34,728 bases of DNA from a virus (lineage: Duplodnaviria > Caudoviricetes). The notes beneath the pieces are model-generated. The model was given only the letters and a program-made list of their open reading frames with translations, was not told where the DNA came from and made no database searches. Numbering within the stretch: the first letter of the stretch is position 1; each line of letters opens with the position of its first letter. Positions 384-34,357 of the stretch are shown in pieces. The position numbers and the translations under genes were made by a program. The stretch is from IMG/VR virus record IMGVR_UViG_3300011336_000071, positions 1 through 34,728 of that record; one strand, 5' to 3'.

Positions 384-604
384 GTGCAGGCAGTGCAGAG
401 TGCAGGCTTTTTTTTCAAAGACTTTGAAAGACCTGTAAAGTGTGTAGTGCATATACCCCTATTTCCCTTATTTATTAATTAATATTCTTCTCTAAAGTAA
501 CCCTACCCTGCACTGCACTGCACCACTTTCAGAGGAGAAATGCAAAAATCCACACAGTGCAGGGTTGCTTTGAAGTGCAGACCATCCATGCACTTCACAG
601 TGCA
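384..604. repeat. GTGCA/TGCAC pentamer array around an AT-rich core; putative replication origin
   Basis: GTGCA at 384, 393, 400, 447, 557, 575 and 600; TGCAC at 509, 514, 519 and 589. AT-rich stretch ~461-497; inverted repeat TTTCAAAG-A-CTTTGAAA at 413-429. Lies directly after the primase-helicase stop. Confidence 0.55.
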
Positions 605-2751
605 AAGTCGCTGACCGCTGGCGGCACAAGTCGAGTCGTCACCCCGTTGCTTCGCCGATATTTCACCCCCTGCACTGACTTCAAGTGCATACCAATGCGC
701 ACAATGTCACTTTTTGAGGGGAAGGTTACACCCACCATTTCGGCCACCTCGGTCGATGTTTTGTAGCTCCACCTGGCCTTGTCAGCCGACCAGTCGAGCT
801 TGGTCACTACCTTTTCAACGATGGGGTCAACGGCTGTGAACTCTTGGTTGTGGGTGTTTAACTCGCCCATCTGGTCGCGGTCTAAGTACCAAGACTCACC
901 GGCCTCGTAGATGACCTTGACCTCGGCCCAAAACTGCTGCATGTCAATCTGGTGGTCAAAGTCAATGGATTGACACTGCACAGTCCAGTAGCGCCTGTTG
1001 CCGGTCTGGTCGGACAAGAAGCTCTCATCGTTGACGCTGGCAAAGAACACAGTCTGGCGCGGCTTGCTGGTGTTCTTTCGGGCGTAGGGCAGCCTGTATA
1101 TATCCCTGTCGCTAGTTAGAAATGATTTAAGTGCGGCAATATCTGATTTTCGGAATGTCGCATCCAACTCGCCTAATTCAACCATCCAATGGGATGTGGC
1201 CTGCCTGACTGAATCGGGATTATCTGGGCGCAGAGTTAATCCGTCTTTAAGTAAATGCCCGTGGGCTAGGTTTTTAAACCATGTTGTTTTACCGATACCT
1301 TGGTCGCCAAGTAGAGTTAATACGCCATGCGCTGATACGCCGTCTGGCCGGTAAAGGGCGGCCATAGCGCCGATGGCCCACTTGCGCATCATCATCTCTT
1401 TAATCTGGGTGTCGGGTGATGTGATGGTGTCCATCCACTGGTTTATTCTTTTTACGCCATCCCAAGGCTTTGACTCAATCCAATCTACGGCTGGGTGAAA
1501 GGGGTTTTGCAGGCACTGCTGGGTCATGTACTCGGCCACCAGCGAGTGCGGCAGGCCGGACAGGATAGCCTGGCTGACCATGTGGGTGACGGCGGCGTTG
1601 GCCTCGTAGCCGTTGATGACCTTCAAACCTGGCACATGCACCACCTCCTCGCCTGACATGGTGTTGAACGAATACTGCACCTTGAGAAAATCAGACAGTG
1701 CGGCAAAGTTCTCTAAGGTGTTTAAGGGCTTGGGATGCTTGCCGGCGGTCATGTGCGGCCAAACTAGGCCAGCAGGCTCGGCATCGGACAGATCAGACAC
1801 ATCAGCCTTGACCACAGTCTTTGCTACTGACAGGGGCGACCAGCCAAGACTCTTTGCCATCCAAAGCAAAGAGCCAGCGCCCAGCTGGGTGGGCTTGGCC
1901 TTGCGCCACTCACGCTCAGCAAAGTCTGGGTGGTGCTTGGCCGACTTGGCCGACCAAGCCATGAAGACATCGTAGCCGCCATCGCGCAGTGCGCCTTTGG
2001 TGGCGTACAAAACCTTGAGCCAATCCTCAAAGGCAAGATCGGGGTTGGGCATCTGGGCTAAGGCGGCAATGGCTGCGATGGGGTCGTTCGCCTCTTGACG
2101 CTGACCAGGCACGCGCTCAGACAGGACGCCGGAACTCATGGGTTTGCGGCCAATGAGCGTGCCGTGCAGTGACAGCAGGGCTTCGCACCTTAGAATAATT
2201 TCACGGGCTTGGGACTCGTCAAGGTTTATCAGCTTGTCCCTGCCGACAAGTAAAGGCTCACCCGAGCCGTTCCATGTGTACGGCTGGCCGGTGGTCGGGT
2301 GGATGGCGTAGGCCACAAACTGCTGACCGCTTGCCAGTATCTCTACTTTAGAGCCTTTGATCTCGCCATTGGCGTCTGGCTTGTCGGTTTTGAGAGCGTA
2401 GGTGGCGGTGCTGACTTTGGGAAACTCTTCCTCAGTCCTGAACAGTAGCAACTCACGGGGTGCGTTGCCAATGCGCCTTGGTGGCGGCTTTTCGTAGCAG
2501 CCGGTGACATCGTAGGCAATGTCGCGCATGGCGGCCACCAGCCCCGCGTGACTGACATCGATGTCTACGCACGGCGTGTGCCGAGTCAAGATGCCGGTGT
2601 AGTTCTCGCTGTACTGGCTGGTGTGTGCCTGCCACCCGCCTTGCTGCCACTTGGCAGGGGCTGGGCGCTTCTCACCCCTGATGATGGGGACTGGCTCGTA
2701 GCCCTTGTCAGCCAGTAGCTGGGCAATGTTGCCAAAGGTTTGGTCAGTCAT
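595..2751 (-). CDS. Primase-helicase (Prim-Pol N-terminal, PriCT-2, VapE/VirE-like ATPase)
   Basis: N-terminal GYEPVPI..EKRP, VDIDV and QFVAYAIHP; PriCT-like WLKVLYA..FMAWSAKSAK; Walker A GDQGIGKT; ELGELD, YRLPYAR and DQTGNRRYW. ATG at 2751 overlaps the upstream stop. Confidence 0.9.
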   Translation of the reverse strand: MTDQTFGNIAQLLADKGYEPVPIIRGEKRPAPAKWQQGGWQAHTSQYSENYTGILTRHTPCVDIDVSHAGLVAAMRDIAYDVTGCYEKPPPRRIGNAPRELLLFRTEEEFPKVSTATYALKTDKPDANGEIKGSKVEILASGQQFVAYAIHPTTGQPYTWNGSGEPLLVGRDKLINLDESQAREIILRCEALLSLHGTLIGRKPMSSGVLSERVPGQRQEANDPIAAIAALAQMPNPDLAFEDWLKVLYATKGALRDGGYDVFMAWSAKSAKHHPDFAEREWRKAKPTQLGAGSLLWMAKSLGWSPLSVAKTVVKADVSDLSDAEPAGLVWPHMTAGKHPKPLNTLENFAALSDFLKVQYSFNTMSGEEVVHVPGLKVINGYEANAAVTHMVSQAILSGLPHSLVAEYMTQQCLQNPFHPAVDWIESKPWDGVKRINQWMDTITSPDTQIKEMMMRKWAIGAMAALYRPDGVSAHGVLTLLGDQGIGKTTWFKNLAHGHLLKDGLTLRPDNPDSVRQATSHWMVELGELDATFRKSDIAALKSFLTSDRDIYRLPYARKNTSKPRQTVFFASVNDESFLSDQTGNRRYWTVQCQSIDFDHQIDMQQFWAEVKVIYEAGESWYLDRDQMGELNTHNQEFTAVDPIVEKVVTKLDWSADKARWSYKTSTEVAEMVGVTFPSKSDIVRIGMHLKSVQGVKYRRSNGVTTRLVPPAVSDFAL

Positions 2752-2971
2752 GCGGCCCACCAAGTTTTTCTGAAACATCTTTAAAGCACAGGTTCAGAGT
2801 TTTGGCCGTGGACTCATACAAATCGACATAAAACGCATGCCCATTGGAGCAAGTCCAGTAGTTGCCAAAATCAGAGTCGTTATTTGCCATGCGACAAGAG
2901 CCGCACCTTGGGCAATTGAAAGAAAACACATCGTTAACTTTTGGGCTGATGTGATGAATGGTTTTAATCAT
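2744..2971 (-). CDS. Small Zn-ribbon protein
   Basis: CPRC...CSNGH motif; relatively AT-rich; stop overlaps the primase start (ATGACTGA). Confidence 0.6.
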   Translation of the reverse strand: MIKTIHHISPKVNDVFSFNCPRCGSCRMANNDSDFGNYWTCSNGHAFYVDLYESTAKTLNLCFKDVSEKLGGPHD

Positions 2972-2981
2972 TTGTGGATCC

Positions 2982-3063
2982 AAAAAAAAACCCAGGTCAA
3001 CCTTTCTCTGGCGGTAGCCAGTTGGCAGACACGATGTAACTCGTGCAGAAAGGTTGGCCTGGG
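2982..3063 (-). ncRNA. c4/CI-like antisense RNA (multi-stem structure ending in U9)
   Basis: 17-bp outer stem (2991-3007 with 3047-3063, one G-U). Inner hairpin GCACGA-GUUACA-UCGUGU, unpaired CUGCCAA, hairpin CUGGC-UACC-GCCAG, then U9. Both exposed segments have exact 7-nt complements upstream (3067-3073, 3082-3088). Confidence 0.7.
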
Positions 3064-3099
3064 CCTGTTACATATAAATCGCTGCCAAGCGATGCGCAG

Positions 3100-3121
3100 A
3101 CTGTAGCACATTGGGTAAAAT
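3100..3121. promoter_or_regulatory. Closely spaced divergent promoters
   Basis: Minus strand: extended -10 TGcTACAGT at 3108-3100. Plus strand: TAAAAT at 3116-3121. No good -35 hexamers. Confidence 0.45.
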
Positions 3122-3126
3122 ACTCA

Positions 3127-3216
3127 TGTCGTTGATCTCGCGGTTGATGACAAGTTGTTCTCCTTCTAGCATCGACTAGTTACCCCTGACAGTTCACGCT
3201 GTCAGGGGTTTTTCTT
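3127..3216 (+). ncRNA. Putative ~90-nt sRNA with an anti-Shine-Dalgarno seed
   Basis: -10 box upstream; 5' hairpin GUCGUUGAUC/GGUUGAUGAC; single-stranded GUUGUUCUCCUUC (3154-3166); strong plus-strand terminator; no plus-strand ORF. Confidence 0.5.
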
Positions 3217-3986
3217 TGGGAGGTTGATTCTAGTCCTTGGGGTAAAAGACACTCCACCTCTTGGATTCTTTTGCCGATCCATGCCATCACAGGCACGGCC
3301 ATGCTGTTGCCCAGAGCCTCGTAGCGTGGCCCGTCTGGCGTTGGCTTGCCCTTGAGCTTAATGTCGGTGTAGTTGTCAGGAAAGCCCTGCAAACGCTCGC
3401 ACTCCTTTGGAGAGAGCCTGCGCACTTGCATGGCGGTGCGCAAATCAAGTCCACCAGCATTTTGACTAATGCGATAGCCCTCAGTTGTCATTGCAGGCGC
3501 AACATCAACCTCGCGAATGGCGTGAAAGTTTTCTTCAAACGCCACCGCCATAGGATTCTTGGCTTGCAGCGTCTGGGTCATGTCCACATCAGTCTGTGGG
3601 TTTGACATCTGGCCGCTGAAAGCAATCGGCTGCGCCACCGCATGGCTATGTCCCTTGGTCAGGGTGAAACTAGGGTCACCGGGTTGGCCAAAACCTAACC
3701 CTCCGCTTGAATGTCCCGGTGTCATATTCATGGTGTCAATGGGGATTGCTTGCGCCACCCCATGCACACACGTGGCGTTCAGCGTGTACATCGGACCGCC
3801 TTCAGTAAACCCATCGCCATTGCCGCCGTTCTCAGGTTTGCGGCCTATGGTGTTTTCTGCGAGAGCAATGGGTTCGCAGCTAAAGTGACCCCCTGTTGTA
3901 GGAATCAATGTCTCTGTTTCTGCGTCCATGCGCGTCTTGGTTATCAGGCATTTGCTTACCAAGGGTAAACAACCCCCCCCCCCCAC
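3180..3986 (-). CDS. C5 DNA methyltransferase, C-terminal part (variable/TRD region, motifs IX and X); out of frame after the G12 tract
   Basis: VRRLSPKECERLQGFPDNYT (motif IX) and RYEALGNSMAVPVM (motif X); the ORF begins at the poly-G tract. Confidence 0.85.
   Translation of the reverse strand: MGGGGCLPLVSKCLITKTRMDAETETLIPTTGGHFSCEPIALAENTIGRKPENGGNGDGFTEGGPMYTLNATCVHGVAQAIPIDTMNMTPGHSSGGLGFGQPGDPSFTLTKGHSHAVAQPIAFSGQMSNPQTDVDMTQTLQAKNPMAVAFEENFHAIREVDVAPAMTTEGYRISQNAGGLDLRTAMQVRRLSPKECERLQGFPDNYTDIKLKGKPTPDGPRYEALGNSMAVPVMAWIGKRIQEVECLLPQGLESTSQRKTPDSVNCQG
3182..3217 (+). terminator. Rho-independent terminator
   Basis: ACCCCTGACAG-ttcacg-CTGTCAGGGGT followed by a T-rich run (TTTTCTTT). 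The U-tail is on the plus strand only. Confidence 0.8.
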
Positions 3987-4744
3987 CCGTTGATATGCTG
4001 ATTTTCCAAACCTTGCTTATCGCCAAAATGTGCGTCAATCGTTGGGGCTACTTCTGCTGGCCAAGTCGCCATCAAGTGACCTTGTGCGGCGTCTTGAACG
4101 CTGATGCTTTGTCCTGTTCGGGCGCAAAGGCTACCGACTGAAGGGCTTGCTCTAGTGCTGGCGGCAGCACCTTGCCCCTTTTCTCTGCTCGGCGCAGGAT
4201 ACCCGCACAGGCTGTGGCGCTCAAAAAGAACCGCTGCGGCAGGTCGCCAGTTTCCAAGGTATCCGACAACGAACACACGGCGGCGGCGTTGGGCCACTCC
4301 GAAGTACTGAGCGTCAAGAATTCTGTATGCGAACCCATACCCGAGTTCGCCCATCCCTCGAAGGAGGGAGGCAAAGTCGAGTCCTCCGTTAGAGGATAGG
4401 ACGCCGGGGACATTCTCCCAAACCAGCCACTGGGGCCGATACTTTGCAGCAATGGCAAGGTAGGTAAGCATGAGGTTGCCACGAGGGTCATCCAATCCTT
4501 TTCTGAGTCCGGCGACTGAGAATGATTGGCAGGGAGTTCCTCCAACGAGAACATCGACATCTGAGACATTTGTCCACTCCTTAAATTTGGTCATGTCGCC
4601 CACATTGGGCGTGTTTGGGTAATGGTGTGCAAGCACCTGTGATGGGAACTTTTCGATCTCAGAGTAAGCCGCAGCCTCCCATCCAAGGGGATGCCAAGCG
4701 ACTGTTGCGGCCTCAATGCCAGAGCAAACGGATAAGTACCTCAC
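3956..4744 (-). CDS. C5 cytosine DNA methyltransferase, N-terminal part (motifs I-VIII)
   Basis: LSVCSGIEA (motif I), GGTPCQSFS (IV), ENVPG (VI), QRRRRVF (VIII). Confidence 0.93.
   Translation of the reverse strand: MRYLSVCSGIEAATVAWHPLGWEAAAYSEIEKFPSQVLAHHYPNTPNVGDMTKFKEWTNVSDVDVLVGGTPCQSFSVAGLRKGLDDPRGNLMLTYLAIAAKYRPQWLVWENVPGVLSSNGGLDFASLLRGMGELGYGFAYRILDAQYFGVAQRRRRVFVVGYLGNWRPAAAVLFERHSLCGYPAPSREKGQGAAASTRASPSVGSLCARTGQSISVQDAAQGHLMATWPAEVAPTIDAHFGDKQGLENQHINGWGGGVVYPW
3973..3984 (-). repeat. G12 homopolymer at the MTase frameshift
   Basis: 12 C on the plus strand; G13 or G10 would fuse the two MTase ORFs. Confidence 0.9.
4072..4569 (-). CDS. Nested alternative-frame polypeptide, EcoHK31I beta-subunit-like
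   Basis: 165-aa same-strand ORF entirely inside the MTase. WANSGM...EWPNAAAVCSLSDTLE...FLSATACAGILRRAEKRGKVLP resembles my recollection of the M.EcoHK31I beta polypeptide. Confidence 0.7.
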   Translation of the reverse strand: MSQMSMFSLEELPANHSQSPDSEKDWMTLVATSCLPTLPLLQSIGPSGWFGRMSPASYPLTEDSTLPPSFEGWANSGMGSHTEFLTLSTSEWPNAAAVCSLSDTLETGDLPQRFFLSATACAGILRRAEKRGKVLPPALEQALQSVAFAPEQDKASAFKTPHKVT

Positions 4745-8045: not shown

Positions 8046-8150
8046 ATGAACAAATTAAGCAATCGTGCTGATGCAGCCTTGGACTACCTGCTGTGCTTGG
8101 TGATCGGCTGCGGCTTGGCTGCGGCACTGGTGGCGTGGTGGTCAGCATGA
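8046..8150 (+). CDS. 34-aa single-TM peptide
   Basis: MNKLSNRADAALDYLLCLVIGCGLAAALVAWWSA; RBS AGGGG; ATGA overlap with the next ORF. Not in the ORF track. Confidence 0.65.
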   Translation: MNKLSNRADAALDYLLCLVIGCGLAAALVAWWSA

Positions 8151-31520: not shown

Positions 31521-31714
31521 GTGGACTCTAACCCATTGTCAAAGGCCCACTTGTTCGGGTCGATCTGCTCTGGCTGTGCCAAGGCTTCTTTAATTGAGGC
31601 GATGGTGTCATCCCAATCGTGGCCCATCTTGTCTGGGCAATAATTCTTTTGAACGCAATACGCGGCATCTTCCAGCGCCTCCAGCGCCAGCTTCAGTGCT
31701 TCGTCTTTAGTCAT
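31517..31714 (-). CDS. Hypothetical protein
   Basis: MTKDEALKLALEALE...IKEALAQPEQ; ATGA-coupled to terL. Confidence 0.7.
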   Translation of the reverse strand: MTKDEALKLALEALEDAAYCVQKNYCPDKMGHDWDDTIASIKEALAQPEQIDPNKWAFDNGLEST

Positions 31715-32150
31715 GCTTGTCCCCTTGCTCGGATTGCGGCGGCGAGAATAACACTCACAAAGTCGTAATCTGGGCCAGAGTAGCCATCACACACCTTTGC
31801 ACACGCCTCACGCTCTTCCTTCTGTCCATGATGTCTGCCTCTTGGTGTGCAAGGCCGTACACAGGTGTTGTACTCTTCGCAGCAAACCAGCGGCTGTCCT
31901 CTTGCTCGAATGTCTGCAATTTCGCGCACACAGTCTTCAAAAGGGTCTTCGCCACGCATGGCCCATCCTTTCTTGGCTGCTTCGGCCACCATCGCTTCAC
32001 GCTCCTCCTCCGCCCCAAGTTGTTTCAACTTGTCGCACAGCACGTGAAAGCCAAGAACATTGAAGTCACCGTCCCAGCCTTTTACTTTGCAGACTTGCAG
32101 CAAATCGCGTTTGATTTCATCTTGTGTCATGCTTGTCCCCTTGCTCGGAT
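31710..32150. repeat. 25-bp perfect direct repeat at gene junctions
   Basis: GTCATGCTTGTCCCCTTGCTCGGAT at 31710-31734 and 32126-32150; degenerate copy at 31895-31911. Confidence 0.9.
31711..32130 (-). CDS. Hypothetical protein with two EREA...IRARGQ modules
   Basis: ATGA-coupled; internal duplication of the module. Confidence 0.7.
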   Translation of the reverse strand: MTQDEIKRDLLQVCKVKGWDGDFNVLGFHVLCDKLKQLGAEEEREAMVAEAAKKGWAMRGEDPFEDCVREIADIRARGQPLVCCEEYNTCVRPCTPRGRHHGQKEEREACAKVCDGYSGPDYDFVSVILAAAIRARGQA

Positions 32151-32357
32151 GACTTTGCCTACACCAAAATTTGTACCTTCACACCCCTCTATGTATTCGT
32201 CAGCCAGCTTCGCACACGCCTCACGCTCTGCTGCTGCGACAAGGAAAGCAAAAGATTTAAGTTCTTCCGAAGTCACCGTCCAGAAACCGTTGCGGAATGC
32301 TGGCTCGACACCGGGCGTCTCAAATGCTTTCCCTGCCATTTCAATGATTGTTTTCAT
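32127..32357 (-). CDS. Hypothetical protein (EREACAK...IRARGQA family)
   Basis: MKTIIEMA...FAFLVAAAEREACAKL...IRARGQA. Confidence 0.7.
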   Translation of the reverse strand: MKTIIEMAGKAFETPGVEPAFRNGFWTVTSEELKSFAFLVAAAEREACAKLADEYIEGCEGTNFGVGKVIRARGQA

Positions 32358-32560
32358 GCGTCCACCCATTTCTGTTCAATGCTGCACCACACCACACGCT
32401 CGCCTTCAATGATGCAGTACCCGCCCACAACATCGTCAAGCTGCCCACCAAGGCGGTAATAGCTGTCCTCACCGAAGGCCATGAGTTTCTCACCAGCAGC
32501 AAGCTGCACAGTGATAGTGCGTACCCCGTCCTTGCGGGTGTAGTCTTTGGTGACTTTCAT
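32354..32560 (-). CDS. Hypothetical protein
   Basis: Strong RBS AAGGAG; ATGA-coupled at both ends. Confidence 0.65.
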   Translation of the reverse strand: MKVTKDYTRKDGVRTITVQLAAGEKLMAFGEDSYYRLGGQLDDVVGGYCIIEGERVVWCSIEQKWVDA

Positions 32561-33692: not shown

Positions 33693-34357
33693 GCTGTCTC
33701 TCCTTGTAGCGCCCTGCGGATTGCCTCATGCGAAACAATAACCCCGTGGCTGGTTTTTAAAATTGCCGATATGGCCCGAAAACTAATTCCTGTCGCACGC
33801 ATCTCCTTTGCATACGCCAGCGCTGCCTGCTCATGGGGAATCGGCACCAGCGTGGCAGCTTGACCAGAACCCTCAATGCGATACCCAAACTTGGCTGAAC
33901 CGCCCAGATGGCCACCAGCCTTGCGCTTGGCAGCCTGCCCCTGCTTCTGGCGTTCCTTCAGCACTCTACGCTCATGGCCGGCAAAGCTGCACAAGATCTC
34001 CAGCATGAGCTGCGCGTAGATGTTGCTGGAGTCAGTGACATCCCCGTGGCCGTTGATGATCAGCTTGACGCCAAGCTCCTTGCACTTCTTGATCGACTGC
34101 AAGGCATCCAGCAAATCACGGCTGAACCGATCCAGCTTGGCCACGATCACAGTGTCGCCCTGCTGGAGCGTGACTCCGTTGGCTTGCAGCCGTGCAAAGA
34201 AGGGGTCTGCGCCACTGACGCCGCCATCCTCAATAAACTGCTCGATCACCAGGTTGTGCGTTAGGGCGTTGCCGCTGATTTGCCGCTTTTGCTCCTGCAT
34301 GCTGGTGTTGTCAACCTGCTCTGTGGTGCTGACCCTCACATATCCAAACACTGTCAT
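33689..34357 (-). CDS. Serine recombinase (resolvase/invertase family)
   Basis: GYVRVST (catalytic Ser), DGGVSGA, AKLDRFSRD, FAGHER...ERQKQG, KFGY and a C-terminal DNA-binding segment. Confidence 0.92.
   Translation of the reverse strand: MTVFGYVRVSTTEQVDNTSMQEQKRQISGNALTHNLVIEQFIEDGGVSGADPFFARLQANGVTLQQGDTVIVAKLDRFSRDLLDALQSIKKCKELGVKLIINGHGDVTDSSNIYAQLMLEILCSFAGHERRVLKERQKQGQAAKRKAGGHLGGSAKFGYRIEGSGQAATLVPIPHEQAALAYAKEMRATGISFRAISAILKTSHGVIVSHEAIRRALQGETA

Follow-up and report, generated by a model that had tools for sequence, protein, structure and literature searches.

Between a C5 methylase gene and a primase gene of a tailed-phage genome, both on the minus strand, lies a compact unit on the plus strand, which raises the question whether it encodes a small RNA and, if so, on which transcript that RNA acts. 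The genome is a near-complete (98%) virus record of 34.7 kb, analysed over its whole stretch of 34,728 nt (the window), and contains a terminase-like gene, a serine resolvase, a Cro-like HTH gene and a replication block made up of an SNF2 helicase, a DUF2800 nuclease, a split C5 methylase and a Prim-Pol/PriCT_2/VapE primase-helicase. Among 185,579 prokaryote genomes a single match was obtained, a 9.9-kb contig of an Acidimicrobium MAG, which is possibly mis-binned. An earlier note had proposed that the unit encodes a trans-acting RNA whose anti-Shine-Dalgarno (anti-SD) seed silences several ribosome binding sites (RBSs) of the phage, and which forms a two-RNA switch with a c4-like RNA encoded back to back with it. 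We argue instead, with a probability of about 0.7, that the unit specifies a cis-antisense RNA of about 90 nt which would pair with the leader of the primase-helicase operon and block its translation. Sequence and comparison provide the grounds for this reading, namely perfect complementarity over about 90 nt, a reverse -10 element, a G-U bias, compensatory changes, YUNR loops and, in relatives, a covered primase ATG or GTG. The features are listed in Table 1.

Table 1. Positions, in the window, of the antisense unit, of the leader it covers and of neighbouring replication features
Feature	Position	Strand	Remarks
-10 hexamer TAAAAT of predicted antisense promoter	3116..3121	+	over minus-strand codons 3-4 (ATT TTA) of the ORF from 3127
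Predicted antisense RNA, about 90 nt	3126..3217	+	putative +1 at 3126-3128; from fold and conservation
5' hairpin	3127..3152	+	11 bp, 4 G-U; CUCG YUNR at loop; complementary to uORF and ATG
Seed GTTGTTCTCCTTC	3154..3166	+	exact complement of cis SD and spacer
Short middle hairpin	3166..3179	+	4-5 bp; 2 compensatory pairs
Intrinsic terminator	3182..3217	+	12-bp hairpin, loop G-UUNR-CGC, U-tract; from fold and YUNR loop
Candidate -10 (TAGAAT) of convergent sense promoter for primase leader	3227..3232	-	TA(G/A)AAT in 104/104 loci
Shine-Dalgarno GAAGGAG	3160..3166	-	6 nt before TTG 3153
9-codon TTG uORF	3124..3153	-	TGA overlaps ATG 3127 (ATGA coupling)
19-codon remnant	3068..3127	-	first five codons (MSILP) match ancestral primase-helicase start
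Extended -10 candidate (TGCTACAGT) of c4-like module	3100..3108	-	back to back with antisense -10
c4/CI-like module	2982..3088	-	three-way junction RNA, U-tract; fold z = -4.62
c4-like sites	a1 3088-3082, b1 3073-3067, b' 3040-3034, a' 3028-3022	-	
75-aa ORF travelling with c4-like module	2744..2971	-	overlaps primase start; no Pfam match
Prim-Pol/PriCT_2/VapE primase-helicase	595..2778	-	start 2778 or 2751; replaces PriCT_2/AAA_25 type of most relatives
Candidate replication origin	419..594		TGCA(C/G) repeats and AT-rich stretch; from sequence

The -10 element, the 5' hairpin, the seed and the strong terminator which had been claimed for the plus strand are all present in the sequence. The position given earlier as the start of the unit, 3116, belongs to the -10 hexamer and not to the +1, and the earlier description overlooked both the middle hairpin and the complementarity of the seed to a Shine-Dalgarno sequence (SD) on the minus strand. 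The plus strand folds with z = -4.84, none of 200 shuffles being equally stable, while the minus strand gives z = -3.22. The anti-SD core is predicted to be open (p unpaired 0.85-1.0), whereas at the 5' GUUG of the seed pairing prevails in the prediction (p unpaired 0.16-0.19).

On the minus strand the seed region reads GAAGGAG-AACAAC-TTG, that is an SD, a spacer and the start of an upstream ORF (uORF). To this SD and spacer (GAAGGAGAACAAC) the seed is perfectly complementary, and they are also its sole 13/13 site in the window. The GGAG does serve as RBS of a minus-strand ORF, which the earlier note had named as refuting its proposal if this were the sole role, but it is not only an RBS. The predicted cis duplex amounts to -183.7 kcal/mol, as against -17.9 kcal/mol for the best site in trans. 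The position of the TTG start is occupied by ATG in four related loci (L140, L141, L129, L186). It may be noted that the 5' end of the sense leader (CUCC, 3214-3226) is itself predicted to pair with the SD at 3160-3164 of the minus strand. This leader/SD helix, UCC/GGA or UGCC/GGCA depending on the subfamily, beats shuffles in two subfamilies, and its covariation is small (own versus swapped partners, 159, 10 and 264 of 300).

The seed might nevertheless act in trans, mainly or as a side activity, on the RBSs at 8046, at 32560 and at the resolvase start 34357, and these pairings do exist. We found 11 bp at 8046 (-17.4 kcal/mol) and 12/13 at 32560 (-17.9 kcal/mol), as proposed; the pairing at 34357 reaches 11/13 (-14.5 kcal/mol) with the 13-mer seed, and a shift of the seed by one base is needed to obtain 12/13. 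The three sites rank 1, 2 and 6 among 53 window starts set by hand, one candidate without a start codon having been dropped, and shuffles in which the CUCC core was kept reach their top-3 energy in 21 of 400 cases (about p 0.05). However, complements of ordinary RBSs used as pseudo-seeds equal the seed in 5/36 cases for the top-3 energy and in 7/36 for the best site, so that the targets score about like random RBS complements and exceed chance only marginally. The best point for silencing in trans is the persistent pairing with the resolvase RBS, since the seed is invariant in nine relatives and pairs with this RBS in all eight that have the gene (-11.9 to -18.9 kcal/mol). The resolvase is, however, present in only 8/19 relatives and the gene at 8046 in 15/19, the gene at 32560, the top target, has no homolog in any of the 19, and the energy at the 8046 RBS drifts from -18.3 to -8.0 kcal/mol under an unchanged seed. 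Seed scores were slightly higher in ten carrier genomes (0.60-0.88) than in nine non-carriers (0.63-0.80), yet when nine seeds were compared over 19 genomes the seed of the window was best or tied in 7/9 genomes which lack it, and the own seed was best in none of nine genomes with other seeds (the G018 seed was mis-picked). Among the distant subfamilies, the largest has its anti-SD hidden within the 5' stem. Targets that are conserved, or that co-vary with the conserved seed, were therefore not seen in the relatives, and silencing in trans appears improbable to us; the seed merely looks like the RBS which is usual in these phages. A caution follows for similar work, as anti-SD seeds in phage genomes are often mere complements of their own RBS.

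What the unit covers in other phages was examined in two locus sets. A DNA pattern scan yielded 35 viral loci, of which L035/L041/L043, L046 and L056 were left out as they appeared unrelated. In most of these loci the same ATG (MSILP...) begins a PriCT_2/AAA_25 primase-helicase of about 725 aa, which is nearly unrelated to the primase of the window and whose type is labelled 'regulatory protein repA' in GenBank MW202879. Because the DNA pattern required ATTTTA, all counts were taken from loci found through the protein: 140 were fetched with the ~725-aa primase, 124 of them included the N-terminus together with 130 nt or more of upstream sequence, and 104 were unique. As these form about three subfamilies, the locus counts are not independent. 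In every one of the 104 loci the predicted antisense RNA, which varies from 64 to 97 nt across relatives, spans an SD and a start codon. In 62 loci the covered stretch contains an SD that belongs to the primase start itself; in 33 the covered SD precedes a TTG or ATG uORF whose ATGA overlap leads onto a primase start without its own SD, in five it precedes an in-frame upstream ATG without a second SD, and four are unclassified. Complementarity to the SD and start codon of the target, as expected of cis-encoded antisense RNAs that repress translation initiation (Sar, RNA-OUT, RNAII), is complete, and a promoter and a terminator of the unit's own lie opposite the target, both as sequence motifs.

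A reverse TAnnnT lies over codons 3-4 in 104/104 primase loci, as TAAAAT (56), TATGAT (25), TATAGT (17), TAAACT (3), TAAGAT (2) or TAGAAT (1). It overlies four different amino-acid pairs (IL, II, TI and SL), and codon 4 is always TTA, ATA or CTA, which are rare codons in the gene (TTA 11.7% of Leu, ATA 11.9% of Ile); the background of such a codon pair is 0.64% of codon pairs. Among the 104 loci no conserved -35 was seen for the antisense promoter, and a TG-extended -10 occurs in only 34. Facing it, a TA(G/A)AAT is found 82-116 nt upstream of the start in 104/104 loci; it opens with the stop codon of the upstream long ORF in 70 of 99 loci and not in 29, and it is missing in L063. Could these motifs exist without any functional RNA, the hairpin shielding genes upstream against stray antisense transcripts, the GGAG being only an RBS and the -10 arising from N-terminal codon bias? 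AT-rich rare codons are indeed common at gene starts, the motif being present at codons 3-4 in 4/54 window starts (together with a reverse terminator in only one, the antisense unit), and a -35 is absent from a unit that is known from sequence motifs. Yet the T-A...T positions are fixed in 104/104 loci while the amino acids change, and on the antisense strand covariation is seen in the 5' and middle hairpins, which makes an absence of functional RNA highly improbable in our judgement.

The strand on which the structure is kept was further evident from the relatives. Better folding in the antisense direction was found for 48 of the 54 distinct terminator segments and in the sense direction for six, and G-U pairs number 109 versus 7; this bias in folding and in G-U pairs is partly one of composition, the antisense strand being rich in G and U, and some of the counted G-U pairs involve the U-tract. 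A YUNR loop, the recognition-loop motif of antisense systems as given in excerpts of PMC4485353, is present in 41/41 distinct terminator cores in the antisense and in 12/41 in the sense direction, and in 48/52 of the 5' hairpins, a count made without a control. In 16 close relatives 98.9% of the cells of the three hairpins are paired, with four compensatory pairs; for the 5' hairpin alone 99.4% are paired, five pairs show one-sided G-U changes and one is compensatory, and wherever only one partner of a hairpin pair differs, a G-U pair of the plus strand has been gained or lost. In these 16 the score for covariation exceeds that of 500/500 shuffles, while their count of compensatory pairs is not above the shuffle control (106/500). 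As judged by conservation, the structure and the promoter motif of the unit are far beyond chance. These observations support a conserved, structured small-RNA unit on the plus strand with an anti-SD, back to back with the c4-like module, as the earlier note had it, and suggest that the antisense module is real and probably transcribed, lying over a replication gene of the phage. In one metatranscriptome run (X1), in which 17% of the words recurred, six contigs of relatives extend over the region, as contigs that carry no strand, ends or level.

The steps by which such an RNA would act can be outlined as follows. The host sigma70 RNA polymerase would transcribe the antisense RNA constitutively from the promoter within codons 3-4, and its loops would nucleate pairing with a leader made from the convergent TAGAAT promoter or by read-through. 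Entry of the 30S subunit at GAAGGAG would then be blocked, so that the TTG uORF and the ATGA-coupled primase would remain untranslated; the level of primase, and hence initiation at an origin just downstream, would thereby be capped. Sequence does not by itself separate a block of translation from RNase III decay, attenuation or transcriptional interference. An antisense transcript acting on transcription or stability, be it by interference between convergent promoters, by RNase III cleavage or by attenuation (here via the c4-like terminator), would suit the facing -10 motifs, which stand about 82-116 nt apart in 104/104 loci, and the antisense -10 of the window, which lies 7 bp from the extended -10 of the c4-like module on the opposite strand; such modes are also known for plasmid antisense RNAs, as described in parts of PMC5717011. 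On the other hand, the RNA always lies over the SD and start codon though its length varies, the YUNR loops suggest pairing between RNAs and not simply traffic of polymerases, and the sense hairpin lacks the U-tract needed for attenuation. An effect on transcription or stability is on this evidence unlikely, and a cis-antisense block of translation is the reading we prefer.

Several known systems resemble the proposed unit. P22 Sar is a short, terminated phage antisense RNA that blocks translation initiation (excerpts of PMC12197685 and PMC2629481), and its family (RF00262) was the top Rfam match of a 321-bp region around the unit (23.4 bits, E 0.016, gathering score 43). The terminator stem and the GUU..CGC loop are similar. 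However, Sar has 68-69 nt as against about 90 nt, and it targets the antirepressor, while the unit covers the leader of a PriCT_2/AAA_25 primase-helicase or its remnant; no arc/mnt/ant context was seen around the unit, and no sar match at E <= 10 was obtained in 14 relatives. We therefore rejected membership of the unit in the Rfam sar family, the score lying below the gathering threshold, the match being absent in relatives and the target being different. In those 14 relatives Rfam reported no family at gathering level, and a search of the whole window gave a chance snoRNA match only.

In plasmid R1 the antisense RNA CopA blocks a leader peptide which is translationally coupled to the replication gene (PMC5717011, in part). 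In so far as the arrangement of tap and repA is described there, a TTG or ATG uORF with an ATGA overlap ahead of a gene labelled 'repA' in MW202879 is similar. Unlike R1, the carrier is a tailed phage with terminase and virion genes, a primase-helicase takes the place of RepA, no equivalent of CopB was identified, and the uORF is found in only about one third of the relatives; unlike CopA, the RNA of the unit covers the SD and uORF directly, and its promoter lies within codons 3-4. RNAII of pMV158 is a small cis RNA with a 5' tail and an intrinsic terminator opposite the translation-initiation region of rep (PMC4485353, in part; for CopA/tap-repA and RNAII/repB see also PMC5415839, in part). 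Compared by layout, the RNAs of 64-73 nt in relatives are most like RNAII, which has 48 nt, belongs to a rolling-circle plasmid and lies upstream of atypical initiation signals. We found no published description of the antisense element in the literature, though the supplements of Weinberg 2010 could list related motifs. The element is probably new as an Rfam-unlisted antisense RNA on a phage primase, which by analogy would work like Sar and the plasmid countertranscripts. A similar layout (reverse terminator, SD, short ORF, reverse TAAAAT) was noticed in an unrelated phage (L039:2295-2382, minus strand), where the covered ORF resembles a GroES-type protein by eye; this arrangement is perhaps a module of general occurrence in phages.

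The genome of the window departs from most of its relatives downstream of the covered start. The c4-like module and the other primase are inserted after codon 5 of the ancestral gene, and the direct target here would therefore be the 19-codon remnant, which crosses a1 and stops inside b1 of the module. As the primase is no longer directly covered, the antisense element could be partly vestigial in this genome; the primase would be affected, if at all, only indirectly, for instance if ribosomes kept off a1/b1 allowed the c4-like RNA to terminate transcription. CI of P4 terminates transcription of replication genes, and c4 and c4-a1b1 motifs are listed in PMC2864571 (the former in PMC4825925; both sources in part). 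As far as these sources describe P1 c4, P4 CI and IsrK, the neighbouring module is like them a three-way junction with sites complementary to an upstream a1/b1, ahead of replication genes; as a difference, it and the antisense unit each occur without the other. Its b1/b' co-vary in three matched forms while a1/a' are invariant, and its extended -10 is retained in most c4-bearing loci. A search of Rfam gave no C4 or isrK match for it, and a consistent downstream a2/b2 (seqC) copy was not found. With its extended -10 (2982-3108) the module was observed in 12 viral loci, mobile between primase types, and it may represent a new c4 subfamily.

The two-RNA switch suggested earlier is not general. 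Both primase types occur with the antisense unit, and the c4-like module may be present or absent. Units lacking the module are found in the 104-locus set, where the primase ORF begins at the corresponding ATG or GTG; the VapE primase occurs without the module (L004/L006/L012), and the module stands ahead of an AAA_25 primase in G009. We rejected an obligate switch on account of L069, which has the module without the antisense unit. Furthermore, the remnant ORF has 9, 19 or 52 codons in different module-bearing loci, and therefore any coupling of the two RNAs is not conserved.

To our knowledge, the targets of phage antisense RNAs are the antirepressor, cII and Q; a replication initiator under antisense control is a hallmark of plasmids. 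In this respect the region beyond the primase is of interest. Two to three DnaA boxes, in what we take to be the form of the motif, lie downstream of the AAA_25 primase in 75/78 relatives, and iteron-like repeats of subfamily-specific sequence follow it in the nine loci inspected; this region is likely the origin, as judged from its sequence. In L101 and relatives, iterons and DnaA boxes were observed about 350 nt past the primase stop, and in L154 the primase is followed by near-palindromic repeats in tandem (3878-3970), a further type of candidate origin. No DnaA box was found in the candidate origin region of the window. The parts of a plasmid-style replicon would here be convergent promoters, a countertranscript, a coupled uORF, a primase-helicase and an iteron/DnaA-box origin. 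Neither a tyrosine integrase nor ParA was found in 5/5 near-complete genomes. We tentatively propose, while regarding it as rather doubtful, that these are integrase-less, ParA-less tailed phages with a complete plasmid-style replicon, in which the antisense RNA would set the copy number of a carrier state and define groups of incompatibility or superinfection exclusion without a protein repressor. Such groups among freshwater phages are proposed because the sequence of the antisense RNA diverges by subfamily. A conserved, Rfam-unlisted countertranscript on the primase-helicase of an abundant family of freshwater phages would mean that replication control of the plasmid type exists in tailed phages. 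A reverse -10 in codons 3-4 together with an upstream reverse terminator offers a simple signature for searches.

Some further observations were made in the window. The C5 DNA methylase gene (4744-3180, minus strand) is broken at a G12 homopolymer (3973-3984), and the length of the G tract varies in near-identical contigs, being 12 without the preceding GGGT in L001 and 14 in L002; the split reflects either phase variation or an assembly error. A 165-codon ATG ORF without a Pfam match (4072-4569, minus strand) is nested in another frame of the methylase gene. Also, two adjacent small genes have a near-identical upstream stretch in common (CCGAGCAAGGGGACAAGCATGAC, 31714-31738 and 32130-32154, minus strand), which is typical of recombining phage gene cassettes.
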